In this document: positions 4,721-53,480 of the stretch, piece after piece | Numbering within the stretch: position 1 is the first letter of the stretch | Layout of the letters: each line of letters opens with the position of its first letter | NCBI GenBank assembly: GCA_008632985.1 | Contig: QPGO01000082.1 | Span: 62,001-126,000, forward strand | Length of the DNA: 64,000 nt | Direction: 5' to 3' | DNA from: Psammoneis japonica | Taxonomy: Eukaryota | Notes under the pieces: generated by a model | Seen by the model: only the letters and a program-made list of their open reading frames with translations | The model's database searches: none | What the model was told of the DNA's origin: nothing | Translations under genes and position numbers: made by a program

Positions 4721-4729
4721 CCTTGTGAT

Positions 4730-5899: not shown

Positions 5900-7575
5900 T
5901 GCTCTCGGAAGTGACTCCTGGCTGGTGTGTTGAACTTTTGGCAAGCTGCAACCATGCATGCGGAATGTGCGTGCTTGATGTGGACCAACCATGGCATGTA
6001 CTTGACAAACAATTGGATCTTCCCCCCTTTACATCCTTGATGGCAAAGCCCCTAGATCGGCAATTTTCGCTCGCAACGAATCCGCCAGCTCACTGACCAT
6101 GGCCCGATGCCACCATCTCTGCCTCTGCATCCTCATTTTCCTTGTCTGCCAGAGGAACTTGAAGAAAGAGATTAAAAACCTTGTCCATTTGGTCCACGGC
6201 ATCCTTGACGGCTTTCAAGCAGACCAAATCTAACGGAGTTGCGTCACCCCCTGTCTTTTGCTTTCTTGACGCGTTTGCATTCATTCTTGGCAGCCTTGGC
6301 ACAGGCAAAGAGAGAAGCTGCCACACGTGGCATGCTCAAATCATTCACCCAGGTGGCTTTTAAATTGCAATCTCTGCAGGAACCAACTGCCAGGCAATCT
6401 CACTGTCCTTGTCAATCACACCACTAGAATCCTCCAACGTCTTGTCGGTTTGTGCAAATCTTGTCCATGGTTTGAGCTCTCCTTGGCAGCTCTCATGGCC
6501 TTTAGAGCACAACTGAGTGGATTTCTAAACTGTGAGCCTGCCACCAAGCAATGACAAGCATGGCCTTTTGTTTTGGTTCAAGACACGCCGCTCGCAAGGT
6601 CAGAAAGTTGAGGCTGAGAGCCGAGACTCTTCAACATTTTCTCATCGTTGACATTGAGAAAGCGATTGCGGATCCAGGAGTTGCAAAAGACCCTTGTCGG
6701 TGGCTCCCTGGGATTGAGCAATTTCATTCTCGTGAAGGGGAAGGTCGAATTCATTCCAAAGCAATGCACGTCGATGGTGTCACCCAAGCACTTGCGAGCC
6801 ACAGCGGAGCATTCCCGATGCCTTCCTGGCCTTCCCTCTCCCAACTCCTTTCCATCCCACGTGGCATCTTGTTCCAAATCAATGCCGGGTTTAGAAGCTT
6901 TCAATGGACAAAAGTCATTGTCATCCACTGGGCCTCTTTTTTGTCCACTGAAGAATGCCGCGATCCTCGTCAGTTTGACAGGCAAGTCTCTTGGTTCTCA
7001 GCGTGAGCACCAACTCGACAATTTCAAGCATTCTGTTGCACGGGGGTCACTTGGACCACCGGCCAATGTTGAGCGCGTCTTTCTCGTAATGGCACACAGA
7101 TCCATGTTCATGTCCTGACACTTCTCAGCAATCTTGTCATCCACGTCGCTTAGTTGCGAATGTCTCTACCGAGTGTCCCAGCATCCAAGATGTGGCAAGA
7201 CATGTTTGAGGACATCGCAATGCACGAGAGTTTGCAACGTGCACACTGTCTTAGATGGCAGGACCGCAGTGCAGCTGCTGACTGACTTTCTTTTTGAGCT
7301 TTTGAAAGGGTTCCTTTTGACGTGTTTTGAATTGTAGAGAAAAAATCGTTTTGTGAAATGGCGTGGAGTGAAGCAAGATGAAGATGTTTGATGCGGTGTC
7401 GTTTTCCATGCAATCCCATGTTTCTTTGAAAGGGCATGCAAGCAGCGGGCGACCACGCATCGATGGGAGAGGTGCCAAAGACAACAAAAAAGGCAGCGGC
7501 AAGGGACAAGCGTGACCATGGTGAACATTGCGAAATTGTGGAAGAAGGTTTGTGCGCGCACGACGATTCACTCAC
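5900..7575 (-). pseudogene. Degenerate gene-like sequence with signal-peptide-like N-terminus
   Basis: ORF at 7575 has a hydrophobic stretch (LSLAAAFFVVFG...DAW) followed by broken frames. Family not recognised. Confidence 0.3.
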
Positions 7576-12236: not shown

Positions 12237-12559
12237 TGTACGATGTGATGAGTTCGTTGGGATTTGCGTATGTGTTTGAACGATGTTTGAATGAGTAGTC
12301 GTTTTTTGTGCGAAGAATGCAACGGAGTTCGGGACTGTTCATGGCGGCGGAAGTGCCGAAGACATCACTTCTGCCCGAGCAGCTGTTTGAAATCGGCGAA
12401 CATCGAAAGTGCGTTGAAATCTAAGATGGCCACAAAATGCGAGAATTTTATATAATAGCACGTTCTGTTATTTAACAACTTTCAACGTAAGTTCAACGGA
12501 GCCTCAACGCAAAGAAGGATGATGCTCATCTCTTCTCTGGATGTTTGCTTGCTAGGATG

Positions 12560-15380: not shown

Positions 15381-15429
15381 TGAGATACGGTAGATGAGCG
15401 AGTCGTCGAGTCGTCTTGTCACATTCACC

Positions 15430-16967: not shown

Positions 16968-17766
16968 GGTTCTTATGCTGAACGCGGTCGGCTAGAGTGC
17001 TCTCTCCGTTGTGCAATGGTTGTGACGTGTTTGTTGCGTGCCATGGTTACGTTGAACGTGTTCGTGTACGCGCGTTGCGCGTTGCGGCGAAGCGAGCGAA
17101 GCGAAGACCGTTCGTCAGTCAGTCGGTCGGTCGGTCGGTCGGTCGGTCCTTCGTAGGTTTCCAAAAACTAACCGACAAAGAGAGTTGCTAGGGCCCTAAT
17201 TCCTCACCACGGAAATCCTCACCAAATCCTCACCACGGAAATTTCGTTAAATGTTTTGGCGTCACATGCGAACTGCCACATCACAACATCAACGGCTGTC
17301 CGAGCACTGGAACAAAGTCCATCACTTGAGCAAACACCTCAGCCCCGGCCATTGTCTGCATGCACAGCAACGTCTGCATCTTCCCTCTGTGGCGCGCCGC
17401 TTTACAGCGGCACCTCACGATTGTCACACTTTTTGTTTCAATTGATGTGCACTGGAGTCTCTCGAGTCATCCATGGTGTTGTCTTGTTTTTGGCTCTAGT
17501 TGAGTTGCCTTCCAATCTGCAAAGGCGGTTTGAGACACGACCTGAATGACTTTGGGTCGTTGTCAGGAACGACTTGCACCTTGACAATTTGGGGTTGTCG
17601 TTAGAAGACCATGCTTTGTGGCCACCAGGTGTCAACGATGCGAGTGTCACTCACTGAAGACTCAAATCCGCTGGCGTCAATGAGTGTGTTGGTTGCGCTG
17701 TTGTGTGGCCGGTGCTTTGCCATTTTGTTCGTTCCCTGAGATTCTGCTGGTAGATTGTAGTGTGTC

Positions 17767-18726
17767 TTGCCCATGCCGGCAGCACGGCAACACATTTCTG
17801 CTCTGTCAGACGACCCTCAAGACGACCCTCAAGGCAGCTTGCACCATGCCACGACCACACGGCTCCCCCACGACCCTCACAAGATTCACGTGAGCCCTCA
17901 TCACGAAGCATTTTATGAGAGCAACATGAGGGCGTTGGCCATCGTCGATGACAACGCCGAACCTGGCTGCTCATTGGATGACGACGCCAACCGCAAGCAG
18001 GCCAAAGTCGAGCCCGGCTGCTGCTCACTGGATGATGACTCTGTTGTCATCACTCTTGAAAAAACACCTGACTTTTCTCTGATGTCCACGCTTGGCCTTG
18101 AGCATGTTGCCGACCTGGCAAAAATCGGTCGCTCTGTTGCTGTCCCTGCTGATGGTAACTGTGGATGCCACGCTGTGCTGAAGGGACTGGAGGAGGCTGG
18201 CTTGATCAAAAAAGGCACTTGCAACAAGGACATGACTGGTTTCCGAAAACACATGCATGGTTTTGCTGTGCAGAACTTTGAGGGCTTGTGCGGTCGGCCC
18301 TTGGACAATGGTGCAGGTGAGGACAGAGGTCTCTCGGCGGCTGTGTGCGATGGGAAAGTTGTCGGGGAATTTGTTGTCGACAAGAGGAACGAGCACAATG
18401 CTGGTGCAAGCCAGAAAGCTCGATTTCTAAAACTGCTTGCTTGCATCTGGAAGACCGGGATTGACTTCAATTCTGGTTGTGGCAAAGGTCATTGGCATGA
18501 TGCGAATGTGTGCAGCACCATTGTCACTCTCAAGCATGAGCGATCGATTGTCTGCTGTGGAATGGGAAGCAACAAAAACACGTCCATGCACCATCATTCC
18601 AATGGAAAAGTGCAGTTGTCATTTGCAAGAGACACTTGGCTCTCTCCTCCGGCCAATTCCATCACCATGACCCACGACGGCGGCGGCCATTTTGAATGCT
18701 TAAGTCCAGCAAGTGCAAAAGGAAAG
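17767..18726 (+). pseudogene. OTU-like cysteine protease (deubiquitinase-fold) domain inside the MULE
   Basis: VPADGNCGCHAV (OTU DGNC catalytic loop) and a distal HFECL His motif. Probable intron at about 18727-18831 links it to the transposase part. Confidence 0.7.
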
Positions 18727-19186
18727 GTGTGTTGTTGTGTGCTCAGCCAGAGTCATTTTATTTTAAAAAAAGCAATCTCACAATTTGCTCCCATTGTGCT
18801 TGCTTGCATCATCAATGCATTCTCGCCTCCAGCCGTGAAGGATGTGGTTCCTGCCGTTGCCACTAAAGCGAGTGCCGAAGCTGACAACAATGAAAAGGCA
18901 GCGGCAAGTTTTGAGGTGTGCCACAGTTTGTCATGAAGCACAAGGCAATCTCTCACTCTTGTTTTTCTTGTTGCTGCAAGCTTTGCTTGCCAACCACCAC
19001 AACAATGAGTTGCGTTGCTCGGACGAGCACAACGTTGCACCATCCTGACTGGCTCGATCAGTGCAGTGCAGACACCACAACGCATGACGAGCTCCAAATA
19101 CAAAGCAAGGAACTGCAAGGCCAAAACTGGGTCACAACTGGCTTGGAGGATGAGATGCGACAGCACGCTCCTTCCAACAAGGAGAC

Positions 19187-22072
19187 ATGTCGCGAGAGAG
19201 ACAACGAGCATTGCAAAATGGCTTTCGAGCAAAAGGCTGCTCTGCTGTTCCCCATCGGCGACAGTTTGCTGGTCACACGCAGCTCGTGCAGGCCGCAAAG
19301 GAATTTCTGGAGATGTGGGGAGCCATGGGAGTGCATGAGCGTAAGACTGTTGGCTGCCACTTCTCTGAAGCCAAAAAGAAAAAGAAGCTCGCGCCACTTG
19401 TTGACCGATCGAATCGACGAAAAGTTGGCCCAACCATGAAAAGCCAGTGCAAATGCCCGTTTGGCATCACGCATGGATTTGTCGAAAAGAAAAAGGATCC
19501 TTTCACGAACAAGTTGAGGCCTGACATTTTCTACAAAGTGAAGACAACAGCAGCAGTGTGTCAGCACACGTGTGAGCTGAACACAGTGTTCCATCGCAAG
19601 GCAAAACAAGCAAGCGGCGGCACTCAACCTAGCTTGGTCGGGCTCCAAAGCATTGCAGAGGATCTCCGAATCAAGCCATCCATGAAAGCAGAAGACCTGC
19701 GCCCAAAACTGACAAAGTGTTTGCCTTCGCATGTTGATGCCGATGCAAAATGTGTCAGCAACTTCCGAAGCCGCGCAGCCACCTGGATTCTGAACAACGA
19801 GGAAGACGAAGAAGTGTCACATGATGATTTAAAGCGACTTACATCTAAGAAACCAATTGCAGCTGATGAGCTGGTTGTGACCGACAGCTCTTTAACCAGA
19901 GTCAATCTGAGAAAAATGCCAAAGAAGACAATGCAAGAAGACGGCTCGACATGGGATGCGCTGTGGTGTTTGCAGGATTTGAAGAAAATGCTGCTCGGTT
20001 TCGACTTCCACTTGAAGCACGATGCGACCGGCCGCCCTGAAGCTGTTTGCCACATGACAGCAGAAATGCGATGTGATTTGATTCGGCATGGTGATGTCCT
20101 TTTTCTGGACAGCCAGAAAAGGCAGCACAACAATCAAGGATGGCCGTGCATTGGGCCCGCCACAAAGGATTGCGAAATGAAAGTTCGATGTGTGACAGAG
20201 TGTGTTTGCATGGAAGAAGCACACAAGCGCTGTTGCTGGATGCCACTTTCTGCTTCCGAAATGGAGCCACGCTGGAGCTTTGACAACACAAGAATGACAT
20301 TTGCAGACCAGCACATGATGCAAGGCTTCGTTGATTCACTTCAAGCTCAAAGGGACCAACGCCTCCTTCAAATCCTTCTCCGAGGAGACCACTGTCACTT
20401 GCTGGAGGAAGTTTTCCCAAGTGAAGAAGGCTTTGGATTGGTGCGCTGCATGCAAATCCGGAATCAACTCTGTGCAATGCTCCAATCCAAAACCCAAGAG
20501 GAATGGGACACTGCGTGCCATGCTGCCAAGGAGGTCATGAAGGCTGATGCCGCAAAACTGCAACTGCTTTGTGCAACTCACGACAAGCCAGAGTGCTGCG
20601 CTGGGTGTCATCTGCGGCAACAGGAAATGAATCTAAATCTTAAGGGTTCTGTTGCTGCAGAACAAAATCATGCAAGCATTGTTGCTCACCTTGGTGCGGG
20701 CGCCAGTTGGTCTGTCGCTGAGCCCATGAAGCACCTGCTTGAGCGCCAGGAAATGCTCACCCGCAAGCGGAGAAAAGAGGAGGACAATCTTCACGTGGTT
20801 TCCTCAAGGCACAAGTCTGGCAACCAAGGTCAAGCTGGTGTGGATGATGAGTTGGCAAAGAGCACTTTTTCCAGGTGTGCATGCAAGAACTTGCATGTCG
20901 CTGAGATGAACAAGAGCAGGAAGCTGCAAGCGAAGATGGCAGAAAACGATGCAATGAATGTTTGGCCTTGTGGCAAAGAGGCAACCTGCAAAGAATCTGT
21001 GTTGATGCAACAAGGAAAGCGATGCCCATGTCGCGAGAGAGTGGCCTTTGGCCATCAATGCAGACACGAACTCAAAGCCGACGGCAAGCTCGACACATCC
21101 AAATGGTCAAATCGATGGCTGTCGGAGCGAGCATGCTCAGTGGCAATGCCAAGTCATGCTCACACATTGTCAGATGTCAAGAACAACGAGAGGATGTCCT
21201 TGAACGATGGAGATTCGAACGATGGAGATTCGTTTTACGACCACCAAGAGCCCCAACAACATGGTTCGCCAACCTTGGATGCCGACCGGGACAACACCTC
21301 AGATGAAGATGACGACAGAACTGTGTCAGGTGATTTGGCGGGAGACAACTACAATGAAGAGGACCAAACACCGCATCTCACCTGCCAAGACTTGACATTT
21401 CAAGCATCCAACCTCATTGGGTTAGTTCAAGGAGACCAACCCAACATGGCCGCTCTTTCCTCACCACTCCAAACAATTGCAGACAGGGCGAGACGCGGGT
21501 TGAGAATCCACGCTGCCTTTGACACTGCAATGTCAGAAGTTGTTGACAATCCAGCAGCTGCCTCACTGCCTGGCATCCTGCAAGCAATGCCACGAGCGAG
21601 CCGCCAAAGACGCAAGCAGTCCCGACAAGAACTCCGGCGTGACGCGATGCATGCATCAAATGGCTCCAACCAATGCCGTGCTACATCAAGCAACCGTTGC
21701 TCGATAAGATCTTCCAATGATGGCGAATGTCTTCAACCACCAAAGAAAAGGAAGAGTGCATGCAGTGCTTGTGCAAAACCCAAGCACACCACCCGCACTT
21801 GCCCAAGCCTCCACAAGTGCAAGAGACCACCACTGGCACCCGGATCACGACCAGAACGCGAAACGTTGCAGGCCCAACTTCTGAATCCTCAAGTGTTCCC
21901 TGCAATCCCAAGAGCTCCAACGGATGAGCGACTTATTTCTCAATCAATCAAAAGCGATTCTGATTGGCTGGTTGGTCTGACGGTCACCCAATGCTCAGTG
22001 CAAATTGGTGCGGGCGGGGTGGGAAGGATTCGTGAGAACGGATGGCCGACAGGCGTGGTGAGGATTTGGTGA
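19187..22072 (+). pseudogene. MULE transposase with SWIM and zinc-knuckle motifs (hypermutated, frame open)
   Basis: CKCPF...H WRKY/FAR1-like N-terminal part, GDVLFLDS...GWP.IG, LRGDHCHL, SWIM-like CPCRERVAFGHQCRH, knuckle CSACAKPKHTTRTC. Only 3 Tyr in 961 aa. Confidence 0.8.
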
Positions 22073-22202
22073 GGATCTCCGTGGTGAGGAATTAGTAACT
22101 CTCCCGACAAACTCCGAAAACTCAGTTGCAGATTTGAAGTTGTGAGTTGAGAGTTGTTGAGTTGTGATGAGGGTGTGTCGGGTGTGAGTTGCTGCAGTCG
22201 AA

Positions 22203-34930: not shown

Positions 34931-35389
34931 GAACTCAACTCAGCAGTTCTCACGCCCCAAAGTTTACTATTTGCCTCTCTCTGTCGGTTTTGTTTGCAAC
35001 ACTGTCCCATGAATATAACACTGTCCTTTTTCCTTCTTCCCTCCTTCTTTTGCGTGTGGTGTGTCTTGTGGCAACAAAAACGATGTTCATAAAATACCTC
35101 CAAAATTAAAATTGAAATAAATATAATGAGCTACATTCACTAATATGCTATAAATATTTTATATCACAGAATGCTCAATCGCTTATGTGAAAAACTTTAT
35201 CAACAACATATATAAATATATAGCGGATTAAACATCGATGAAAATCATACAAGAGTCAACAAGTCGCATTCGCCAAACGCGCACTCCGCACCAATGCACA
35301 TGCAACGGACCACCTACAGGTTACAGGCTGCGCGTCGAATCTATGTAATGGTCTGCGACCGGCACTGCAGAGTGGCTGGCTGGCTATGA

Positions 35390-36135
35390 CAGTGCCACTC
35401 TCCAAACCATCGGACCCCTGTCAGGACTGTGCGCCACCTCCTCAGACGTGCATCATGAACCCACCAACCTCATTCCACATTCACCACTCAAGCGCCCTGC
35501 CGACGTTGGATTCAAACTCACCCCTGTCTCCTCTGCTGCTGCGCCCACCACCCATTCCTGTTTTTTGCCATCGATGTTGCCACCCCCAAACCCACACCAC
35601 CACTTCCAGCTCCTCTGGCTTGCCGCCCCCATCCAAGACCCCATGACCAAGGCACACCATGCGAGCACAAAACAGGAAATTCCATGGGACTCACGAAACC
35701 CAACGTGGCACTGCCGGCACCCACCTTGCACCATTCACAGTTGATCACCTTGGCTCGCTTGAATGCTTTGCTCATCACCACCTCTTTGGCGACACTCAAA
35801 AACATCCACTCCCTCCCCCACCTCCTCCACCCTGGAACTCAGAATCCTCTTTTCAACACCCATCTGCCTGCGCGGCCTTCTTCCCAATGCTGCAACTGCT
35901 TGGAATGTCATCACCTTCACCAGGTTTGGTCTCACACACCACACCACCACCCCAAGCCAATGGGCCTTTCAAAGTCTCAGTCTTGTGGCCCAAATCTCTC
36001 GCCAACCAACTTTTGCGCCACTCCACCAAACTTCAATCACAACTTGTCAGTCCAACCCCAAGAACCCTCCCCCGCTCCCCACCCACATGACACCATTTCA
36101 TCCCACCACACCATCTGCACTTCACACCACACTGC
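35390..36135. other. Small TpA-free island (degenerate repeat) upstream of APC5
   Basis: About 740 bp with no TA that I can see, C/A-rich, flanked by TA-rich intergenic DNA. Confidence 0.7.
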
Positions 36136-36362
36136 TTACGGCAATGTTCCGGATGACATTTCGTCTTGGTGCCAGCGGCAAGTGCAAAAGTGAGAGCGAT
36201 GGACAGACCGTACTAGTTTCTCCTTCATACATCATAATCATACAGTACAGGGTCTATTACTGTGTCATTCGACGGATCTGTTGTTGCGTTGCTTGCTTGC
36301 GGACGTTGTTTCAGACCTCTCCCTCTCCCCAATTGAGATACAAAAGCAGTGGTGATAACGCC

Positions 36363-40487: not shown

Positions 40488-43400
40488 ATTGTAGAGTCCG
40501 ATTCTTCTCTGCTCTACAGTGACCGCTTGGCTCAGTGCTGCAAATCATGAGAAATCTTTCACTATTAGTTGTAGAGGCACATATTGAACAAAATAACAGC
40601 CACAGCAACTACACACCTGAAACGATTCGTTGCACCTCGACAGTCAGAAACGAAGAGTCGCGCCCCATCAAAATTCGACTGCGCTTTGTAGCGGCTGTAT
40701 ATTCCATTGTTTCAAGGCTTTATAGCAATGTAAGCACGATCTTCATAGCCCATTCATTCATTGTTCATTCACACATGATGATGTGACGGAGAACTTTTGA
40801 TTCGGCTATTGTCGGTCGTCTTAGGGTCTTGGGTCTCAGCGAGATTTTCTGTTTCTTGCTGTTTCTCTATTTTTTTTTTCATCCAAAATCTTGAAGTTCA
40901 AAATGCTCATAATCATATTCAAAAGTGGATAATGTTAACAAAAATCAATATCGTCATAATTAGTGACTTTAATGATGATATTATGACATGCATGATTACC
41001 TCCTGCATATCTCATACCGGTAAAAGGTTTCATCTTCATCGATCGGAGGGAGTTTTTACATTCGAAAAGCGTTGCAACGGAAAGAGCTCGTGGTGGGTTT
41101 TCTTCATCAATCCTGTCGCTGCTGCACACAAGCAAGCAGTGTAACAACTAACTCCTCCTCTCCTTTGCCGCACCGGCATGGTGCCCTCTGTGTTTGTCAG
41201 CGTGGCAACTCAACTCACACAACCGTGATGATCTTTGTGAATCAACAACCAACAAAGTGGCTCATTCACTTTTTGCGGACGACTTGAAAGGAAAGGTGAT
41301 CATGTGTGACTTGATGGAAGAAAGCAGTTCTCATGACAATGACTCCAATGCTGTTGATTTTTTGGACTCATCAGCAATGTCCCATTTGCAAGAACCTCAT
41401 TCAGAGCCCATGTCTTCCACTGCAGATGATGATTGCAACATGTCACTCTCTGAAATTGTGCTCCGTGATTCCTGCCAAGGTCATCAGCTGATTCCGTTGC
41501 TGCTGAAAAAGCAAATGGCTGGAGTGGCGCCCAAAGAAGCAAATCCATTGCACCTTTGCACCTTCCTTGATGACAACCTTTGGCCTGTGTAGAGTGCAAA
41601 CAACATGATGGGCCATGCACAATTCCTGTCCCATTTCAGCAACTGCGCACATGGATCAAGGCAGATGCATCAGGTCCGTCGTTCGAAACGACCGGCAAGC
41701 AAGGACTGCAGAACTCATTTTGAAAGTGGATTGAGGGCCATCCCAACATGCTGAGCCATGTTTCATTGACTTTTGATCAACATTTCATGTTTCCTTTCCC
41801 AAATGATGGAAGGAAGCGCAAAAACACGACTTTCTTTTTGGGTGCAAAGGACGTTGCGCTGCCTCGTCTGATGGTTGTCCAATGTTTTTTACAGCAGGTT
41901 TTGATGAAGCCAGCCTTCAAAGAATGACTGCATGTCCTGCTCCTGAAACCATTTCTCTTTGTTTGACCTTCACAGGAAATTGTCTTCATGTGAAAGGGGA
42001 GAGCCAATGAATCTGCTTGACAAGTTCAGAGCTGGCGGGAAGATGCCGTCCAAGTTTGCAAAGGGAAATTTGGCAGAGACAACAGATGCATTGTTTCACA
42101 AGGCCAATTGCATTGCACAGCCATCAAAGGACACCCATCTGCAACATTGCCAGAGAGTCAAAAGAAAAGACATGGTTGGACCTTGGCTTGGCGAGGTGCA
42201 CTGTGAGCAACACAATCAAATTTGGCAAGATCTGGGACTCAGATCTGGAGGAGCAGCAGAACAAGCCAAAGGACAAGATGACTCACCTCCCTGGCATTCT
42301 GCTGCTCAGTCAGCTGTTCCCTTCCTTCAAGATGCATTTGCACACAAAGCAAATGGCCCAAATCATGTGCACACTTCTGGGCACAGGACAACTTGTTTTG
42401 TCTGTTGATGCCACCGGAAATTTAATCAATCCACAAAGATTCTCCACACAAAGATTTTGGTGTTGCCACAACATGCAGTGCCAGCTTGTGGTGCCAACAT
42501 GAATTGGCAAGACACTGCACATCTCCTTGCAACACTCAATGTTGCCAAGATGGTGAGCAACAGCAACACAGGTTGAGACTGTGTTGCCTTTTAAGACAGT
42601 TTTCTGGCTGACGTTGCCAAGTGTCAAGAGAAGAACTCACCAAATGCCCTCCACAGAAGCCATTGCTTTGTTGCACAGACTGCTTGCCTCAGCTGCAAAG
42701 CAGTGCACTTGTTTCATTCTCTGACAAAGCTGTCAAGCTGGAACCAATTGAGTGTGGCAACCTTGTGTTGCCACATTTGTGCCACTTTGACAAATTTGGC
42801 AAGTTGTCTGATGCTGCAAGGTGTGATGCAGCCAAAGAGATTTATCAAGAGTTGCGTCAGGGCAATGTGGGAGTCTCCTTGAAGCTGTGCAAGTCACACG
42901 CATGTTTCAGGCACTGCAGCACTGGGTGACAAACAGCAAAGAAGTGCCCAAAGCCTTGGCCAACCAATTTGCTCAGTTGTTCTTCAACAAGACACTTGTG
43001 TGCAAGAACCAAATCTCTGCTGTGATTGCACAATTTGTCGTTGTCATTGCTGTGTTGGAAACACCTCATTTTGTTGTCAAGGAAATTTCTTGCAGACAGG
43101 CAAATGCAAGAGCACCATGGTGCTGTCAAACAAGAGAGCAAATCACAACTTGCACAAAACATCAGAGAGTTTGTTGAAGATGAGTCACAATGGCTGGTGA
43201 TCCCATTGTTGGATGAGGCAGGACAAATCATTGAAGAGACAGACATGAAAGAAAAGCTGATCCTTTTGCACAAGGAAGTTGTGAGCCAAGCCATGGAGCT
43301 TGTGAAAGGGCAGTGTTCTGTTTGTCTTCACACTGTCACAATTGACAATGACAACCTGTCAAAGAATCTTGGAACTCTCAAAGGCGCAGTTGTGTGCAGT

Positions 43401-45053
43401 TGTGACACACTTGACTGGGGCAGCATGGAACCATGGGCTGAATGGGGATTTCAAATGTCCATGTCATTGCTGTTTGTTCTTGGTTGCAACAGCATTGTCA
43501 AGAATCTTTTGTACAACCCTGGTGTGGCAAAGCATGTTCACAGCACTTGGATGCAACAAACCTCATTCTGGAGTCATGGCACCATCAAGCTCTTTGAGGA
43601 TGTGATGGGAATGGCTGAGATTGAGGGCAGAAACCAGTGTTCTGAAGGAATGATCAACAACTCAAGGGAGCAGAGAAATGCCTTGGTGAACTGGCAGCTC
43701 AGAGAGTCGGCCAAGAATTTTGTCAGCCAGCATGATGTGCCAGAGCATTCATTCCATCAAAAGCTTGCTTGACGGGAGAACAAAAGGCGTCAATTAACTG
43801 CTGGCAGTGCAGAGGATGGCAATTCAGTTGTGTCAGCAGAGACCCCCAATTACAAAGTCATCACCCAGTTGACCCAGGACCAGATGATTCAGCAACAAGA
43901 GAACGTGGCTCAGGAAATGTGGAAGCAAGGCAGTGGACACAAGCCGGATGTGAAAGAGCAAGATGGACTGCTGAGGAACAGCCTCAGCTGCATTCTGCGT
44001 AAAGTTGCTCTGGAGGCAACCACAAACAACAGCATGCGCAGCTGTTTGGACAGGCATTTTGGAAAGGACAAGAAGAGAAAAGCTGCACTCATGTCATGCC
44101 CAACATTCAACAACTTCATGAGTGGCACATTGACCACAAAGAAAGATTTGAATGAGTGTCAATTTGATCCATTGCACCCAGGGAATGGCAACTCCATGAT
44201 GCTGTTGTCTTCTTGATCTGATGACAGCAGCTCATTGCCACAAGTGGAAGACTTGGCCATTGCACACTGCTTCTTTCCCACAAAAGGTGACTCCAAAAGG
44301 CTGTCATCTGACAACAAAGAATTGCACATGCCAAACCTGGAAGCCAGAGAAAAGCAGGAAGCAGCCATTGCCACAGCGGGGATCTTCTTGCACTTGCCTT
44401 GAATCCCTTTTGTTGTGCAACACAAGTTCAGACCTGAAGAAGCAAAAGGGGAGCTGCTGTCATCATCCAACAACACTGACAACTCAGACAAATGACCAAT
44501 GGCAGTGCAAGAGGTTGCCGGAGATGCCTTGCTGATGATGTCCCTGGGCAACAAGGCTCCACCTCCATGAGCACCCTTTCTAGCCTGACAATTGCAACAA
44601 GGCATTGTCATGGTGAACAAGTTGTCAGACAATTGAAAAATGAGAATTGAATTGTGACACAGCAGATGCAAGTGCTGCAGCAGGGTCACAATCTCACTCA
44701 CATGCACTTTGAGTCATGACAGGATGAGCAAAATTGTTGCTCAACATTGGGGCTGTTGCAAGAGCAGCATTCAGTTGACAGTTGGAATGCCACAAACGTG
44801 TTGTCGTGAGAGGGTTGGCACATGAAAGTGAACACAAAGAATGATGGAGCGCATCATGTGGATCTTTTGTGGCACTCCTTTAAAGAAGCCCATTTTTTTT
44901 AAAATGGGGTGACGTCAGCGTTTTGCAAAAAAAGAGGATTCATTTTAAAAAGACAAAAGAATTTTTTTTTAAAGAAGCACAAAAGAACTGTGACATTGTG
45001 CTCATGATCACATGCAAAAGTGCACAATGTAAACAAAAATCAATTCCGGAGCA

Positions 45054-46082
45054 GGAACACTGACAAAAATGTTGCCAACATGGAAAACCGCGACATTTTG
45101 TACATCCGTGTGACATTTGCGCACACTCTTGGCAATCTGGTTGATTTGTTGCTTGAAACCATCAAACAATGTTTGATTGCCAATTTTTTTGTGACACTCT
45201 GACAGTGTTGCTAAGATCAAACATTTTTCTCAAGTGATCTGGAGTGCTCCTAAGTGTTGCATTGTGTGCATGGAAGTTTCAGAGAAGGGAGACACGCAGA
45301 GACAAATGGAGACAAACAGAAACAAATGGAGACATTTGGTGACACACATGGAGACAAATGTGGATTTGGCAACTCATGTGGAGACAAATGGAGACAACAA
45401 TTCTTTTCATTCAGAAATGCATTGCTGCATTTCGGTTTGCAGAGCTGCTGTGTCACTGCTGTGTGACCACTTGCACCACATGGATGGCATCAGAGACAGC
45501 GCATCTTGTCATGCAGAAATTGAATGTTTCTGTTCACAACAACAATTGCTGCTGCCAGACCTGGCAGCTGCCAGAAGCTGGAGCAGCTGCCGGCACTCCA
45601 CTCCAGCCTGTGGCTGGCGGCGGAGAGCAGAGCTGCTGCACCACCACTCTGCAGTGCAGTGCTTGCACTGTGTGTCGAGCGATGGCCATCTTCTGTCAAT
45701 CTGTTGATGTTTTTGTTGTGTCATCACATGGGGGGGAAAACAAAAACTGTCTCCATGTGGTCGCCAAATGTCTTCATGTGTCTCCACTTGTCTCCACTGC
45801 CAACTGTCTCCATTTGTCTCCTTTTGTCTCCCTTTGCATCCCTCTCCCTTCTTCCAAAAACTCACATGCACACAAAACAACACTTGGGAACACTCTAGAT
45901 TGCTTGAGTCCAGCTGGTGATTTTGGCAACATCGTCGGAGTGTCACATGAAAAAGGGTGATTCATGTTTGTTTAATGGAGCAATTTAACAAACCAACCAG
46001 ATTGAAACAATGCATTTGATTGTCCCACGCAGATGCAAAATGTTGCATTTTTCTGTGTTTGCAACATTTTTGTCAGCGTTCC
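45054..46082. mobile_element. Degenerate foldback element with long inverted arms
   Basis: ggaacactgacaaaaatgttgc at 45054 pairs with gcaacatttttgtcagcgttcc ending at 46082. Inner arms at about 45228-45400 (ggagacaaat repeats) pair with about 45745-45910 (tgtctcc repeats). Confidence 0.75.
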
Positions 46083-47170
46083 AGAAGCCAAGGACACTTG
46101 TGGGACAGGCCAGCCATGTGCTGGACCAGAACCAAGCATCAAAGGCACCATCCACACAATGAGCATGCTCTGGGAGCAACACGAATTTGAAGATGACTGC
46201 GGATTTCTTTTTGTTGACGCCTCCAACGGGTTCAACAAAGAGAACAGGGTTCTAATGCTGCACATTGTAAGACACCTTTGGCCAACTGGTGCAAGGTTAC
46301 CTTTAACAGCTGCAAGCATTGGAGCATTTTGATCATCTGTGGGAACTTTGGAAGTGCCTTCATTTTGTTCAGCAAAGAAAACATCACGCAGGGCAACCCA
46401 CTTGGTGTGGCAGCATGCGGGCCAGGACTTCTTCCATTGGTCTGTGAGATGAATGAACATTTCAAAGACGCACTCACCCCTTGGCATGCCAATGACTCCA
46501 CAGCAGTGGGAAAATTCAACATCCTGTAGGAATTTTTCATGACTCTCCAAGTTGAAGGCCCCAAACACAGATGCTGCCTTGCCGACAACTCCAAGAACAT
46601 CCCAGCAGTCCCAGAACACAACCTGGAAAATGCTGGAGCATGCTTTGGAGATCTGGGCTTTACCATCAAGTCTGGAAGCCACCACCTTGGAGGCTTTGTT
46701 GGAGAGACGGATGCACGTGACCATTGGTTGGTGGAAAAAGCCGAGTCATGGGCCTTGGTCATCCAGGACTCACCAGCAATTCCCACCCTCAGACTGCCTG
46801 TGCTGGTCTGCAGAAGTCCCTGTGACACCAGCAGCAATGTGTCCAGCATGCAGCAAAGGACTGTGGTGAATTTTTTGCCAATGCAGAGTGTGTGATGTAG
46901 CACAACTTTCTGCCGGCGCTAATTGGTGAGACCCCAGCTGACAACAACCCAAGACCAGCCCCACCCGCCCTCCCAATCAAATTTTTGGGACTGTTCATCC
47001 CTCTTCCAACAGAGTCTGCAGCTCACAACTGGGAAGTGAGCAATCTCACATGCTCCCACATGATTGACTCACTCTGTGGCCACTCCCAGTTCTCCTCTGC
47101 AGTCAACAAGGACACCATGTGCAGAGTGAAACAAGAAGCAGCTGATCAAAAAGTTAAAGCACGCAGGGAG
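46083..47170 (+). mobile_element. Non-LTR retrotransposon RT relic (CRE/early-branching type)
   Basis: QPCAG...GTIH, FLFVDASNGFN..NR, TQGNPLG, PWHAND (from WYADD), HHLGGFVG. Multiple frameshifts. Confidence 0.8.
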
Positions 47171-47177
47171 ACATCTG

Positions 47178-47465
47178 TTCTTTTTAAATCAGTGGATTTC
47201 ATGTCTGGCCATTGTGTGTTCTTTGTGCTTGCAAGATTTGTTGTCTTGCCATTGTCCATTCTTTTTGACTCAGCACATTTCATGTCTGGCCGTCATGCAT
47301 TCTTTGCACTTGCAAGATTTTTCATCTTGCCGTCGTCCATTCTTTTTGACTCAGTGCATTTTGTGTCTGGCCATTGTGCGCTCTTTGCGCGTTCTTTGAG
47401 ATTTTTCCTTTTGCCATCTTTTGTTCTTTTTGAATCAGCAGGTTTTTTGTCTGACCATTGTGCGA
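47178..47465. repeat. Minisatellite, unit about 81 bp, about 3.5 copies
   Basis: ttctttttga.tcag...tgtctggcc...caagattt recurs at about 47178, 47259, 47340 and 47423. Confidence 0.8.
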
Positions 47466-49099
47466 CAATTGATTGTCTGGTTGTCGTCCACAGTCCATGC
47501 ACTCTTGCCAGTTGCAAGGTGTCCATTTCGTTCTTTCTCTCTCTCTTAGAAAAAAATGCCAAAACTCAAATTTGAGCACAGTGGTCACTCGTTACTCCAA
47601 ATGACATCAACAAGCCATCCGTTGGTGCAAACACACAAATGGCCATGTGGGTGAAGAACAAGCATGCAGGAATTTGTGTCAATTCAAGACCCGCCCTGTT
47701 GTCCTGGAGATTGTTCAGATGCAAGGAGAGTGTGACTTCAGTCAGGTCACTGCAAACAAAATTTTTGTGCCCTTCCTCACTGAAATTGCACTTGTGAAGT
47801 TTCCTTTCTGGCCTTGGTGAATGCAAAGTGGACACAGATGACCGGAAGAACCAATGTGCCATTCTTGCTCAGTCCATCTTCAGTCTGTCTGCCAGTCACC
47901 AATGCTTGTCATCGTCCCTCCATTGTCCAGCAGTCCAGAAGGCTGCAAACACTTTGCATGCAACTGTTGACCACATGCATGGCGAACAAACTGAGATGCT
48001 GTGTGGTTGCATTGGAGCAGCTTTGTGCTCGTCTCTGTGTGGAACCTCTGTGGTGGTGGGGCTCACATGGGAGCACGCTGTGTTGCCGGATTTGACGTGC
48101 CTGAGAGCAGTGACAGCAAAGGCAGCCAATGGACAAAAACTCTGAAAGACCTGGTGTTTTCAAGCACATCCTTTCCAAATGAATCTGTCACTTCCATTGA
48201 CGGGAAGCCGCATGATGTCGAGGTGCGCTCTGCTTTGTCCCCATTCCACCATCACAAAAGTTGTGATGTGGATGGAGGTGCAATTCTTCACATCGTGTTG
48301 GACATGGGCTCAGTTTGATCAATGCAGATGCCACTTGAACGGGCAGGAATGACATGCATTGCATTGGAGGAAGACTGCTGATGCAATGGATTGAGCTGTG
48401 ATGTCAGGATCAATGCATCTGGAACAATTTGTGTTGTGACTGCAGACCAAGCAAAGCTTCTTCACAGCAATGATGGATTGTCTTGTCCTTGCTGTGTCAA
48501 GTGGGTGAAAGGTAAAAAAGGATTGTGGTGGCATCAGCAGACTCTCTGTGGCAAGGGCTAACTCACAGCAAAGCTCCCTGGAAATTGTGGTGCACAACAA
48601 AGGTTTCCAGATGCAAGAGCTGCAGGCTTCTAAACGGAGTGAGTCTAGACAACCATCTCAGTCATCTCTTTGTTGGAATGAGCAAGTCTTTGAATTTTTC
48701 AAGCAAGGAAATTTAGATGGATTGAAGCATGCAGTTGTGATGGGTTTCAAACAGATGCAGTGTGGTTGAATGTTGAAATGCTGTGCAAGACTGGCTCGCC
48801 TTTGTTGCTCGGCACCGGGACTTGCTCAGAATGGATTTGACCCAAAGCAGGAATTGGACAAACACGGCGCATTGGTGGTTTCTGGGCTGCTGGATCAGGA
48901 AAATTAGATGGTCTCAAGTGTTTGACAGAGAAGTGTGGATGCTCTGCTGATGTGGCTCAACGCAGACACCCCCCATTCATCCAAAAATGGTGCCTGGGGC
49001 CTGCAGTGCAGGAGGTGCACCATTGCCACACATCAAGTTATGCACTGATGATGGCTCTTTGCAACAACCCACATCTCAAGGCAAAATGAACTGGGGGGG

Positions 49100-52000
49100 A
49101 GCCCTCGCAACCCCCTGAACCCTTTTGCCCAACTCTTGGACACCCTCAGAAAAAGCTTGACTTTGCTTTGTTGCAAAAGGCAGGGGCAATGACCCAAGTG
49201 ATTTCTGATGTTGGGGTGCTGTGCTGACTCATGTTGGCACTGCATCTCTCTCCTTTCATCCTGGCTGGCATTGCATTGCATGCTGGTTGGAATGACATGG
49301 CCATGCAGCCTTTTGATGCCAGTGCTCCTTCTAGGTGGTGCATCTCCTGCCAAGAATCCACCTCCCTCCCCACTGTTGATCCTAGGAGCAAGTTTGCCAA
49401 AGCTTTGGCCAATCTCATCCACCTGGTCCTGCTCAATTTGAGAAGGCCATGACACAAGTGTTGAGTTCAGTGCCTTCTCATTGACCTCTGCAAGTGCTCC
49501 ATTGACCACAACATCTCTTGCCTGCTTGTTCAATCCCAAAAAAATGCCCTCTGGTGTGTTGGCAGGCATGGTGCAAATGCAAGAAGGATGGAAAGGTCAT
49601 CTTGGGCAACTCTTTGACCTCCTGCAAACATGGAATCATGCATCATGAAGATGGCACTCAATGCATCTTTCTTTGTGACAGCTCTTTGTTTGTCGTCAAG
49701 CCCAGTTGGAGTCCCAATGCTTTCCCATGTACAATGCTGTGCTCAGCTGTGACAACATCTCACCTCAAGGCCTTTGCACATGGTGCGGTGCTCTGATTGA
49801 GCAGGCTGTGTCATGTGCTTTCCACATTCACTCACACTTTGGTGCTTTGTCCCGGGCATTTGTGGCAGGTCTTTCACATCTGGAAATGCCAAAACAGACA
49901 ATCTTCCTCAAGGCATGACTCCACAACCTTTGGAACAGATTGCTCTCACAATTGTTTTGCACCTCCAGAAGCAAGACTGGTCTTTCCCCCCTGCAGGCTC
50001 CAAGTTCCCTGACATTTTTCACCAACATCATGGAGATGGTCATTTGGTCCTCAAGACAACTCTCTTTTTTGACTGCCCATCTGGCACAATCATCTTCATC
50101 ATGATCTCATCCAAGACAACACAACCATCCTCAGCCACTGTGCTCTCTTCAAGGATTTTCTTCGAGCATGAGCCATTGTCTCCAACGTTGAAGTGTCAGA
50201 CATTTCTGGTGAACTGGGTGTCTTCATCAGCAACATGAAAAAAACACACATTCATTGCAAGACTGCCAATGCTTGCAAGGACAAAAACAAGACCAACCAT
50301 CTCAAGGCCAAGAAGATTTTTGAGACCCTGACTGTCCTTCTCAATGAACCAGATGGTCCTGCACAGCATCTTGACACTCCTCCTGGTTCCAATCATTGGA
50401 TTTTGAACCTGAGTGACTGCTCCCCCATGAAATGCATGCAGCGGTGCACTGCTTCATCAACTGACCCAACCACCACAGTCACTCTAAAGAGAGCTGGTGC
50501 TGGCTCTGGGAGTTGAGGGTGCTGCTTTTTCTGTTGAGCCTCTTGAAGATGCTGTGGAAGCATTGGTCAGTGAATTGACTGCTGTTGAGATCCCCAAAGA
50601 TGACACACCTCTCATGCAATGCATTGCATGGACTGTGAACTGTTGGTGTCTGCCAGATCAAACAGAACACTGCCACTGTAGATTGCTGACTGTGTCTGGC
50701 ATGCAATGGAGTGCACAAGATTGCACAATGTCATGTCTCAAACAGTGCTGCCTCTCTTTGTTTGCATGTGATCCCCCACTTCTGTCAATTCACTCAACAT
50801 GAGCAGCACACACTCAGGATGAATCTGCATTGCAGACAAACAACCTTTTGATTTATTTTGGTTTGAGCCATCATCAAGTTTGGGCACATGAACCTGCCCC
50901 CAGCTCTTTCTGCTCTGAACACAACAAATGAACATGAAGTGACTGTGGAAGAGGGTCACATTGACTCATCACCAATCACTTCCATGCCTCTTTTTCTGTC
51001 AAACACAGTTGCTCATGATGTTCATCAAGCTCCTGCCAGCCCTCCTGATGTGATTGGCCCCATGTGGAACACTCATGTTCATCTGCAGAGAGTGCAATTC
51101 ATGCACTTCTCATTGGCACCAATCTTCCTGTCCTCCAATTTTTGGTGTTTCTGATCATTGTCCTCACATCAAGAGCTCCATTCCTTTGAAGGACCAAGCA
51201 AGACTCTGCTCCAATTGCTGTCACTGCTGGCAAGACAGATGACCTTGCTTTCTCTTTGTGCCTTTGGACATCATGTGTGGGCTTGGATGCCTGGTCATTG
51301 ATTTGCCAAGTTGCAGACTCACTCTAAGAAGGGTGCATCCCTTGGATGCTTGCTGAACATCACCACAAAAAGAACATTGTTTGGTGGGACCCCTCTGCTG
51401 ACAAGGTCAAGATCACCAAGCATGTTTGTTTTGATGAAAATGTGAATGATTTGCCCATGGATGAGCCACCTTCAAATGTTGTTCACCTTCAATGCATGGA
51501 ACATGGCCTTTCCTTCCCTGTGGACAAACCAGCAGAGACCACTGTTCCTGAGTTTTCAACACCTGTCAATCCATTTGCAAGATGACTCTTGTGTGTGCTG
51601 TGAAATGTTGTCAGTGCAATTGGACCCGCAATCTTGATTTGCCAAAATCTGGTGTCATGGATCGGGTTTGTGCATCTGGAGTCAAGCCAGGCAGACCTGC
51701 TTTTGTCTTTTCTCACACTCCCCATGCACCCCCCCCCCCCCCCACACCACACACACACACACACAAACACAACAAGCTTGCTGGGGCCTGCATTGTCCCC
51801 ATCTGTCAACAAGAGTGAGGTTTGCATGGTTTCAGGCACAAGAGTGAGGTTTGCATGGTTTCAGGCACCAAGTCAGAACTGCATCGTGTCTTTTTGATGA
51901 CTCAATGTCATCTTTTGACATCATCATCTTTTGTGCCCAAATGTCACTTGGATTCATGCCAACTCCATCATGCCATGGACCATGGAGGATCACATGAGGC

Positions 52001-53310
52001 ATGGGTGCAGATTGTCTGATTGATGACAAGGCTTGCATCCCTGAGGTCTCTCTTGAAGAGGTTCATGAAATGGCACCCATGCTCTGTCCCAAGGATGAAT
52101 TTTCTGAAGGTGCCATTCTGGATGTCACTTTTTGTGCACACCTCAATGCTGGCTCTTCCCACACCATTGCTGAGATGGAAGTGGCCCAAGACTGTCCAAC
52201 TCATGCTCATCTTTGTGAACTTGCTGCTTGACCAGAATGGCAAGCAGAAGAATGAAAATGGCTGGATCAACTCCATGCTCTCAGCATGTGTGAACCACCA
52301 CTGCAACCTTGGCCACGGGGTGCTCATGTCATGCAAACACACAGGGAACACAATCTCAAGCTAGCTGGTGAATGTCATTCTCCCAACAATGTGGAGATGA
52401 ATCTTAGAAAGTGATTCCAGCTGTCCACAAACTCACATTCACTCACTCTTTTGAGTTGATCAGCTGACTCAATGTCCTTTTTTTGCCTTGAGCACAGGCA
52501 TGGTTCATTGTGTCTGTTCTGGAGATTTCCACAAGGCATGTGCTCACTCACCTCCTCCAACCACTCAAGTTCATGTTGCCATTGACAATGCCCATCGTGA
52601 GTGGCACAAGGCATGGTTCAGAAAAGACATGAATCCCAGCTGTGCTGTGCCTGCTCTCTGTGCTCTTTAAAGACACCACAAGGCAAGTTGTTTTGTTGGA
52701 AAAGCACATTGGTGTGGCACTCTCTGATGCCAAGTCATTGTTTTGCAATGCTGCTCATGACAAGTGCATTTGTGCTGGGACTTGTGAAGGTGCCAAGGGG
52801 CTTTTTTGTTGTGACAGATTGATGATTTTTCTCTTGCATGTCCAAATGAGAACATTGCTGTTGCAATTTTTATCCTGTGTCATGGCAAAGAGCTTCAGCC
52901 ACTCAATGAAGAGACACCTCCTTTTCAGTGCCTTGGACTTTGTGTTGGATTCAACGAACTTGATGTGATCCAGAATGATGGGGCCCCATCACCATCAATG
53001 TTGCAGCTGCATGAGCAGGTCTTGCAAACCCATGTTTCTACATTTGGAACAAAATGGGTTTGAAGGAGTCTGTCATGGATTTCAAGGCCACTCCCATCCC
53101 AGTTGATTGCAGTGCAGTGTCATTTGGCAACTCTGGGACCTCAAGAAGGTGCTGATGCTCGTGCTGAGCTGGAAACCGACCACAAGTTTCTGCACTGCTC
53201 TCTTTTGGGCAAATTAATTTTTGCACACCACACTTGTTGCCGGTTTGACATCGGGCACCCCATTGTCACACTGTCCAAGTTCTCCGAGGCTCCCACTGAC
53301 ATCCATTGTG
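49100..53310 (+). mobile_element. Ty1/Copia (CoDi-like) LTR retrotransposon pol relic
   Basis: Post-integrase NIVWWDP...VKITKHVCFDE..NDLP. RT region ACAHSPPP...VAIDNAHREWHK...PALCAL and RQIDDF. Also SLLGKLIFAH..CRFDIGHPIVTLSKFS. No LTRs found; 5' limit approximate. Confidence 0.8.
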
Positions 53311-53480
53311 GCTAGAGTGTGTAGAGACCTGCACAACTTGTAGGCACAGTAGTGGCTCTAGAGTAGAGCAGAGACTACTGCTGATTAGCTAGAGGATGAG
53401 GGTACTTCGTAGGTCTATTGCCAACATACACTACATCATAGATCTCTAGGAGCTAGCTAGCAGAGGTTACATAAGGTATA
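53311..53480. repeat. CTAG/TAGAG-rich patch
   Basis: ctctagagtagagcagagactac, attagctagagg and ctctaggagctagctagc begin immediately where the Copia relic ends. Confidence 0.65.

Follow-up and report, generated by a model that had tools for sequence, protein, structure and literature searches.

TA steps have been almost eliminated from relics of mobile elements in the diatom Psammoneis japonica, and those that survive lie mostly in YTAR contexts, a bias confirmed in 41160-53310 of the window, i.e., the whole stretch of 64,000 bases analysed here, to which all positions refer. That a context-biased mutator lies behind it is regarded as nearly certain. The interpretation offered in a first-pass annotation, namely that surviving TA sites reveal a target preference, is supported.

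Surviving TA steps and the elements that carry them

An NTAN count of 41160-53310 found 53 TA steps in 12,151 bases (4.4/kb), compared with 33-56/kb in six normal segments of the window. In strand-collapsed classes, 32/53 are YTAR (TTAA 14, CTAA/TTAG 12, CTAG 6), and six of the 53 lie in TTTAAA; the others are GTAA/TTAC (9), CTAC/GTAG (5), ATAA/TTAT (4) and GTAC (3), while ATAC/GTAT, ATAG/CTAT and ATAT each stand at 0. In normal DNA, YTAR accounts for 124/636 TAs outside ORFs (block vs non-ORF, Fisher p=6.7e-10) and for 136/832 within them, and a share of 0.30 would be expected from the block's own dinucleotide composition where 0.60 was observed (p=7e-6). The same class ranking was found in four other depleted segments of the window (YTAR 45/86), and ten arbitrary 10-kb stretches of the genome gave 132/275 in depleted and 295/1740 in normal DNA. 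These counts bear out the earlier statement that the remaining TAs are mostly ttaa, ctaa, ttag or ctag: depletion is not uniform, and the YTAR excess is missing from intact DNA. ATA had been called absent and TAT rare, which holds for the forward strand (0 and 4), the two being reverse complements and hence one class of 4 sites.

CG is likewise depleted in 41160-53310 (10/kb vs 54-63/kb in normal segments). A-runs and ApT persist as had been claimed, with observed/expected ratios of 1.04-1.30 for AA/TT and 0.70-1.05 for AT and a GC of 0.45-0.50, and therefore no general GC drift has taken place. Near saturation of TA loss was found in 57% of a 100-kb genome sample, composed of ten 10-kb stretches all taken from large contigs. 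Within the window the depleted segments are element relics, and host genes are normal for TA. The features are as follows:

3528..10471, unstranded: TA-depleted segment, from segmentation
12489..15385, unstranded: TA-depleted segment, from segmentation
17196..22095, + strand: MULE-like DNA transposon with 42-base terminal inverted repeats, from self-comparison
19154-22072, + strand: MULE frame of 972 codons, only 3 of them Tyr
35386..36210, + strand: small TA-depleted island, Copia fragment, 1 TA in 825 bases
41043..44948, unstranded: repeat element, family unknown; a single further copy was found, G000:C90 (74-83% identity), likewise TA-depleted
41150..53312, unstranded: TA-depleted block in which old relics of mobile elements form a mosaic, from two-state segmentation, NTAN counts and sharp TA edges
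45054..46082, unstranded: inverted repeat, arms 45054-45386 and 45748-46082, 71% identical, from self-comparison; by inference MITE-like
47178..47464, + strand: tandem repeat, unit of ~81 bases, three to four copies, ~77% identical, from self-comparison
50124..53310, + strand: Copia-like retrotransposon relic, TA and CG nearly gone, 48 other matches in the genome

No Pfam family matched the six frames of 41150-53312 (X at stops), nor was any found for the frame at 43.0-44.4 kb or for the words resembling reverse transcriptase near 46.2-46.9 kb. The Copia-like relic was matched at 51516-53309 by tblastn with the L030 ORF (26-45% identity), itself a weak RVT_2 match (E 2e-4), and 35403-35978 in the small island by an ORF of the young Copia family (34%). 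Between the element at 41043..44948 and its C90 copy, 70 columns are TG/CA discordant. At 4737-5278, a 79% copy of the normal DNA at 507-1032, 12 of 19 TAs are now TG/CA and 1 is kept.

In the MULE frame, whose homologue P0001 gave a weak ZSWIM RNaseH-like match (E 0.008), 24 columns are mostly Tyr in outside homologues and now hold 14 Cys (TGY), 7 His (CAY), 1 Tyr, 1 Phe and 1 Lys, and the 21 Cys or His columns give the direction of change; split by preceding base, the Tyr-to-Cys/His sites are too few to orient the motif. All three surviving Tyr codons are in YTAC context as had been stated (cTACa, tTACg, cTACa), although the frame lies outside 41160..53310, for which this was claimed.

Course and sequence context of TA loss in young copies

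TAY reads as RTA on the opposite strand, and a 3' pyrimidine rule therefore cannot be told from a 5' purine rule by survivor counts alone. Rates were measured in young copies of a Copia family elsewhere in the genome, in which the process is half done; they had to come from other families because TA depletion extends to every copy of the elements in the window. The context fit comprised 4331 observations at 239 sites in 25 full or partial copies, 239 of 274 sites being kept once those in TATA or in the 3' LTR had been removed; L140 (no edits) and L149 (changes in common with L151) were left out. The negative log-likelihood fell from 2296 (uniform) to 2250 with position -2 only, 2110 with +1 only, 2060 with both and 1953 with four positions. 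Where one strand reads TAY and the opposite one TAR, edits fell on the former 657 times and on the latter 245 times, in both orientations, and at 95 of 106 decided sites it was the A of TAY rather than that of TAR. Two of three other families replicated this (TAY strand 106, TAR strand 52), the third, F3, giving no alignments at the thresholds used.

An A followed by T or C is changed at about 3.5-5 fold the rate of an A followed by A or G, an A at -2 raises the rate ~2 fold, and further effects were found at -3 (A) and +2 (pyrimidine), so that AAT[A]YY is the fastest context and TTTAAA the slowest. Of the proposed order TAT > TAC >> TAR, the preference for TAY over TAR stands on either strand; TAR is slowed 3-5 fold rather than spared, and the advantage of TAT over TAC is modest (5.3 vs 3.6 with two positions fitted, 4.1 vs 3.6 with four), the order being inverted for GTAN and in the raw counts, which are saturated. 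The fitted rates rank the survivors in the window (Spearman -0.89, p=0.0006, 10 classes) and also separate those within YTAR (p=9e-5).

TA is lost from chromosomal DNA once the element has inserted, and either strand can be hit. The young Copia copies hold 944 TA to TG and 807 TA to CA changes over both strands, and palindromic sites are hit on both strands (215 vs 264). In LTR pairs of ten copies with matched target-site duplication, 59 TAs were lost in 5' LTRs and 3 in 3' LTRs, and in all 14 full-length copies 86 and 3; the test is given with and without L112, L115, L116 and L120, whose target-site duplications are unmatched and which may be chimeric. In this one family, tracts start at the 5' LTR and extend 1.5-5 kb inward, and copies of 98-99% identity combine saturated 5' halves with untouched 3' halves and 3' LTRs; the windows centred on the reverse transcriptase in two other families are compatible with both the presence and the absence of such polarity. 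Editing proceeds one site at a time, not in single-strand bursts, and largely independently per copy. Neighbouring edits lie on the same strand in 434/830 cases (~52%) where 50.8% is expected, i.e., there are no strand runs; copies agree at 62% as against 56% predicted under independence, and the counts therefore hold some shared history. One host gene was edited as well, an intron-containing gene beside an LTR, with one allele affected. As a separate observation, sequencing run X2, not on record as RNA, contained three intron-like skips.

In nine tracts, A>G was found at 807 of 1859 TA strand-sites (43%), with 4 transversions. Other adenines range from 0.65 to 1.6% (AA 40/2540, i.e., 1.6%; CA 45/3238; GA 21/3248). 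Among non-TA adenines in tracts, 69/6438 with a 3' pyrimidine were changed vs 28/7371 without, as would be expected for the leak of one enzyme; outside tracts the same split gave 6/4480 and 4/4905. TA tracts coincide with CpG-type C>T decay: private CG>TG changes number 58/1233 in tracts vs 14/2257 outside (odds 7.9). These changes carry no 5' base bias (p=0.27), and the preference for TCG that a promiscuous deaminase might show was looked for and not found. Per site, TA edits are 14 fold more frequent than CG changes (43% vs 3.2%).

Related systems and candidate chemistries

TpA hypermutation is already known from Bigelowiella natans, where integrated DNA of NCLDVs and virophages is affected and 231 mutations are tabulated (Mettrop et al., bioRxiv 10.64898/2026.01.13.699255). 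A TpA-only spectrum was measured there in mutation-accumulation lines, with activity in vegetative growth at ~1000 times background, TpA-poor coding sequences were reported to be enriched in DDE and reverse-transcriptase domains, and an adenine deaminase was proposed, not shown; the main text of the preprint contains no analysis of flanking context, strand, polarity or methylation and does not mention diatoms (bioRxiv 10.64898/2026.01.13.699255). Our literature search found no report of a TpA process in diatoms. In both organisms, the one a rhizarian and the other a stramenopile, A>G/T>C occurs almost only at TpA, on both strands of chromosomal DNA, and is confined to foreign or mobile DNA except for the one diatom host gene beside an LTR. 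However, the affected DNA reported from B. natans consists of two viral regions, each single-copy and retaining much of its TpA, as against the near saturation of the diatom sample.

Among engineered enzymes, ABE8e was reported to make guide-independent DNA edits at a TAT motif with T over C at +1, and ABE7.10 to prefer YAY (PMC11983105); for ABE8e variants genome-wide A>G at TA was described, 66-89% of off-target changes being A>G/T>C with TA preference (PMC13225742), although one paper saw no strong dinucleotide preference on target (PMC13403082). Like the diatom process, these editors are reported to change A to G in DNA, require a 5' T and prefer a 3' pyrimidine, but they act on single-stranded DNA with weaker TA selectivity, and no upstream-A effect was found described in the texts cited. 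The likeness to TadA, at first considered suggestive only, is stronger than was supposed, though still a likeness. The one natural ADAT2 reported to deaminate DNA adenine, amphioxus ADAT2/3, favours GAA when it edits A and TCG when it edits C (PMC10354150), unlike the TAT/TAC and the CG changes without 5' T bias found here, which counts against a TadA/ADAT reading of the motif.

The survivor pattern is best explained as the shadow of a host mutator's sequence preference, A:T being turned into G:C at TpA in inserted mobile elements. On balance, adenine deamination is its probable chemistry. A zinc deaminase of the TadA/ADAT fold may convert adenine into hypoxanthine in cytosine-methylated, silenced chromatin, where transcription or a recruiting complex would briefly open base pairs, and subsequent replication would fix G. 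The effect would be genome defence, because codons that contain TA, those for Tyr and Ile among them, are lost on a massive scale. More tentatively, and short of calling it probable, we propose a natural enzyme, present in diatoms and in Bigelowiella and dedicated to deaminating adenine in DNA, with a preference for 5'-AAT[A]YY. It would be recruited to methylated chromatin at transposon promoters and downstream of them, by promoter position and not by homology, and would have rewritten about half of the diatom genome.

Profile searches for such an enzyme, which divergent ones could escape, yielded only housekeeping types by motif with PF00383 (10 matches) and PF14437 (6); these include a single ADAT2-like gene, at G000:C26, with Asn at the position of TadA D108, and a single TadA-like gene, and PF02137 (A_deamin) found two ADAT1/ADAR-like genes, at C40 and C79. 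TadA-type enzymes need single-stranded substrates, and the lack of strand runs speaks against long ones. The tRNA substrates of TadA and ADAT2 have a pyrimidine at -2 and, to our knowledge, never U at +1, and so differ from the A and T favoured here.

Since every A>G change reads as T>C on the complementary strand, the lesion base cannot be told from sequence. A thymine oxidised or alkylated in 5'-RR[T]ATT in silenced chromatin and pairing with G would leave a signature formally equal to A>G in AAT[A]YY, and acting on double-stranded DNA it would fit the missing strand runs; yet it would have to escape repair for near-complete conversion, one search with the TET/JBP profile PF12851, which is not proof, returned 0 candidates in the genome, and we know of no natural thymine-modifying system that is mutagenic by design, so that this lesion is considered unlikely. 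Similarly improbable is a methyltransferase route, through an enzyme like RID/DNMT4 or DNMT5, or through an adenine methylase that acts at TpA and whose 6mA is then deaminated. It would be the chemical mirror of RIP, the change being the exact reverse of CpA to TpA; the edits coincide with CpG decay, and the genome holds 29 PF00145 matches, several of them RID/DNMT4-like by motif, with DNMT4-like genes at C10, C59 and C34, diatom DNMT4 being reported as related to RID (PMC9998398). C5-methyltransferases, however, target cytosine, DNMT4 is described as widespread in diatoms (PMC9998398) whereas strong TA loss is missing from 78 of 80 metagenomic Copia loci (in a search that favours intact elements), and the homology trigger is missing, many nearly identical 3' halves being untouched. 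RIP in ascomycetes (RID/DNMT4) does resemble the diatom process in dinucleotide-specific transitions on both strands, ruined transposons, a link (presumed in the diatom) to cytosine methylation and sharp edges with some spill into neighbouring DNA; but its C:G>T:A change at CpA is of opposite chemistry and scarcely seen in tracts (C>T at CA 6/3235), and neither its triggering by duplication over the whole shared length nor strand-coordinated bursts were found in the diatom.

Somatic hypermutation produces promoter-proximal tracts of one to a few kb, which the diatom tracts resemble, and Pol eta likewise favours A>G at TA within WA. Error-prone repair, in which T:G mismatches from 5mC decay lead to patch resynthesis by Pol eta or iota with G inserted opposite T at WA, would fit the co-location of TA edits with CpG decay and the reported infidelity of Pol eta at WA motifs (PMC9054841). 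WA comprises AA and TA, but AA is edited 28 fold less than TA; transversions are nearly absent, loss reaches saturation, and the TA edits far outnumber per site the CG changes meant to trigger them. TA selectivity, pure transitions and the lack of same-strand clusters disfavour Pol eta, and this route is judged distinctly improbable; of the two comparisons proposed in the first-pass annotation, the motif agrees with that reported for ABE8e. Editing of RNA or cDNA during retrotransposition by an ADAR- or APOBEC-like enzyme, inherited by copies, might be suggested by a retrotransposon supplying most of the data and by one metagenomic element whose changes are mostly shared between two samples. 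It is refuted as the main route, and scarcely credible, because the two LTRs of a copy differ and one allele of a host gene is edited; both strands and a DNA transposon, the MULE, are also affected, whereas APOBEC/ADAR editing of retroelements would mean one strand, identical LTRs and retroelements only. The context bias might also reflect the elements' original composition, or TAs newly arisen in T/A runs after loss of the old ones: few TAs are common to the window element and its C90 copy, the oldest DNA, and therefore some survivors may be new, and slippage is possible at the TTTAAA sites. As the sole cause this is refuted and thought very unlikely, since rates measured directly in young copies give the same ranking and predict the survivors, intact DNA lacks the excess, and new TAs would meet the same filter; part of the residual sites may nevertheless come from it.

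Implications

Homology-based annotation fails in such genomes, Pfam being blind to 12 kb of relics. Up to 14 TA edits separate the LTRs of near-identical copies, and LTR-pair dating fails there too; host genes adjoining an LTR can acquire a heavily mutated allele. The start of tracts at the 5' end informs on targeting and cannot be explained by a RIP-like homology search. With the strand-resolved motif, the putative enzyme can be assayed directly in both of these distantly related algal lineages, and the candidate chemistries can be told apart.

According to a review, no adenine deaminase naturally acting on single-stranded DNA was available for base editing (PMC10960570). The match with the preference of laboratory-evolved adenine base editors points to a putative natural enzyme that edits adenine in DNA; if this is true, diatoms would possess a natural adenine base editor serving genome defence.

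Contexts of the surviving TAs

Two-state segmentation divided the window into normal DNA and five TA-depleted segments. The largest of them, 41150-53312 (hereafter the block), contains 4.4 TAs per kb as opposed to 33-56 per kb in normal DNA. The block is pieced together from several relics, and Pfam recognised no family within 41150-53312:

41043-44948: repeat, one further copy found (contig C90)
45054-46082: inverted repeat
within the block: short tandem array
50124-53310: Copia-like relic

Two frames at 46201-46890 contain words like those of a non-LTR reverse transcriptase, with no Pfam match. For the APC5-like gene in the window, every named homologue came from a diatom.

The first-pass annotation had described the residual TAs as mostly YTAR, with ATA essentially absent and TAT rare, and this finding is real and its reading correct in the main. 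YTAR makes up 32 of the 53 TAs in the block (TTAA 14, CTAA/TTAG 12, CTAG 6), compared with 124/636 in normal non-ORF DNA (Fisher p=6.7e-10) and 136/832 in normal ORF DNA; its share of 0.60 stands against 0.30 predicted from the block's own dinucleotides. ATAC/GTAT, ATAG/CTAT and ATAT are missing and ATAA/TTAT occurs four times. NTAN depletion is thus non-uniform, with YTAR enriched only in depleted DNA. The same ranking of contexts recurred in the other depleted segments (YTAR 45/86). It recurred too in a genome sample of ten arbitrarily chosen 10-kb stretches: YTAR amounted to 132/275 TAs in depleted and 295/1740 in normal DNA, depleted DNA making up 57,158 of the 100,000 bases sampled. General GC drift, already doubted, does not apply, as GC is 0.45-0.50 in the block and AA/TT are undiminished. 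CG is depleted there too (10 versus 54-63 per kb). The most frequent surviving hexamer is TTTAAA (6/53). Few residual TAs of this oldest DNA are common to the block repeat and its C90 copy, and some may therefore be newly made rather than survivors.

The three tyrosine codons of the MULE-like element do stand in YTAC context as annotated, but their ORF lies at 19154-22072, outside the annotated interval 41160-53310. Most outside homologues have Tyr at 24 columns; the element reads Cys (TGY) at 14 of these and His (CAY) at seven, which fixes the direction of change. Elsewhere in the window, 4737-5278 copies normal DNA at 507-1032 with 79% identity; of 19 TAs, 12 read TG or CA there and one was kept. 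Internal or tandem duplications in normal DNA (25653-27285, 31397-33031, 56693-57251; 70-90% identical, up to 680 bases) kept their TAs.

A young Copia family and the strand-resolved motif

A search for Copia reverse transcriptases led to a family whose copies share 98-99% identity and have largely kept their TAs. One real intact copy served as reference alongside three witness copies, and against it each other copy had turned TAs into TG or CA (edits) in a private pattern. Of 1346 doubly edited sites in six copies with TA-losing tracts, 840 (62%) concur, close to the 56% that independent editing with context bias predicts. Nine tracts showed A>G at 807 of 1859 TA strand-sites with four transversions, and changes at other adenines were few (AA 40/2540, CA 45/3238, GA 21/3248); C>T at CG affected 86/2724. 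Another Copia pair, L052 and L078 (89.6% identical), retains 124 versus 11 TAs and 124 versus 111 CGs, TA loss being far ahead of CG loss.

TAY and RTA are reverse complements and hence inseparable from survivor counts. They were resolved by strand with 239 sites in 25 copies (4331 observations): TTAT was edited 136 times versus 33 for ATAA, TTAC 183 versus 55 for GTAA, CTAC 213 versus 84 for GTAG, and CTAT 125 versus 73 for ATAG. With one vote per site, TAY prevailed at 95, TAR at 11, with nine ties; the preference held with TAY on the sense (519:200) or antisense strand (132:34) and in two further families (106 versus 52). A likelihood fit gave rates relative to A of C 3.6, G 1.4 and T 5.3 at +1 and of C 0.44, G 0.41 and T 0.46 at -2. 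A four-position fit was better, with A 1, C 0.39, G 0.62 and T 0.24 at -3 and A 1, C 2.3, G 1.55 and T 2.7 at +2; AAT[A]YY emerged as the best target and TTTAAA as the slowest. The proposed order TAT > TAC >> TAR accordingly stands for TAY over TAR, whereas TAT exceeds TAC modestly (4.1 versus 3.6 at +1 once -3 and +2 are fitted) and raw saturated counts are reversed (TAC 58-61%, TAT 48% edited). TAR is slowed rather than spared, with TAG 29-30% and TAA 21% edited. Fitted class rates correlate with window survivors (Spearman -0.89). Even within YTAR, survivors and normal sites are told apart by the hexamer model (p=9e-5).

Timing and position of the tracts

When an element inserts, its two LTRs have the same sequence. 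Over 14 copies, 86 TAs were lost from 5' LTRs and three from 3' LTRs (59 versus three in the ten copies with matched target-site duplications); hence the edits are chromosomal and later than insertion. As many as 14 TA edits separate the 5' and 3' LTRs within near-identical copies (L112-L126), and insertion ages estimated from LTR pairs would come out too high. Four full-length copies (L112, L115, L116, L120) have unmatched target-site duplications, and the downstream flank is common to L114-L116, each of which has a different one upstream; these copies may be recombinants or mis-joins.

In 13 full-length copies TA loss peaks over the stretch spanning the 5' LTR and the first ORF, ends after 1.5-5 kb and is almost nil past 5600 bases, L126 being exceptional in that its tract begins about 400 bases in. 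The 3' halves, common to many copies at 98-99% identity, carry no edits, which means that duplication by itself does not set off the process. Neighbouring edits are without strand coordination (434/830 on the same strand, 50.8% expected; 25/48 in lightly edited copies). Private CG>TG changes (58/1233 at local TA loss of 60% or more, 14/2257 at 10% or less; no 5' base bias) look like putative methyl-CpG decay in the same domain, to which longer exposure could contribute.

Directly downstream of one 3' LTR lies a host amidohydrolase gene, present in two versions in the assembly (L124:1403-2463 on contig C139; L120 on C388). One version has lost 25 TAs between about 160 and 1200 bases past the LTR, the other none. 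Both occur at equal depth in three bubbles of short-read contigs, from runs that may stem from the source sample and are not independent; this indicates a heterozygous pair, and assembly error was rejected. Evidence on polarity comes from one Copia family and this gene, two other families being uninformative.

Candidate chemistry and occurrence elsewhere

As to enzyme and chemistry, we infer that adenine deamination fits best and is somewhat probable, given the strict 5' T, the 3' pyrimidine, the pure transitions and leakage to adenines outside TA, which keeps the 3' bias (69/6438 before pyrimidines versus 28/7371 before purines). The likeness to TadA, earlier called suggestive only, is closer than supposed but remains a likeness, the strand-resolved motif agreeing with engineered TadA editors: guide-independent ABE8e edits have TAT as their motif, T at +1 being favoured above C, and YAY is preferred by ABE7.10 (PMC11983105). 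Counting against deamination, no dedicated deaminase was found among 10 PF00383, 6 PF14437 and 4 PF02137 matches (labelled by motif reading), amphioxus ADAT2 prefers GAA (PMC10354150), and PMC13403082 reports no strong dinucleotide preference for ABE8e on target. A modified thymine as the lesion would leave an identical signature, yet no TET/JBP gene was found in the genome, and we consider it unlikely. Equally doubtful is a methyltransferase route, for which several RID/DNMT4-like genes (by motif) speak; the function of diatom DNMT4 is given as not known (PMC9998398). Error-prone synthesis by Pol eta, active at AA and TA (PMC9054841) and suggested earlier for comparison, is a poor fit and very improbable, since TA is in 28-fold excess and transversions and strand runs are missing.

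Two separate ADAT1/ADAR-type deaminase genes were noted (L203 on C40; L204-L205 on C79, with HAE, PCG and CSDK motifs but no visible RNA-binding domain). L166 (C79) combines a deaminase and a 2-oxoglutarate oxygenase-like domain in one frame, and L171 (C151) is a TA-depleted broken deaminase copy. RID/DNMT4-like genes recognised by motif are L173, L174 and L180; L177-L179 and L183 are duplicated, TA-depleted copies of one of them, on C297 and C301.

No diatom report was found in the literature covered, most subscription papers lying outside it. A preprint on B. natans (bioRxiv 10.64898/2026.01.13.699255) reports 231 mutations from two viral regions. Almost all of these are A>G/T>C changes at TpA, and a deaminase is put forward; the preprint's main text neither analyses flanking context nor mentions diatoms, and its supplementary mutation table bears on context. 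In a metagenomic survey of the best 80 of 467 Copia loci, biased to intact elements, strong TA loss appeared in two, one element from two samples (L243, L248; 98% identical; 736-codon frame with six Tyr). A transposase-like ORF beside it is partly TA-depleted. One conserved Tyr reads Cys in one sample and His in the other; the process thus reaches at least one more host. It belongs to a kind reported once before; added here are the motif resolved by strand, the match between that motif and engineered TadA editors, and the tract start at the 5' end.
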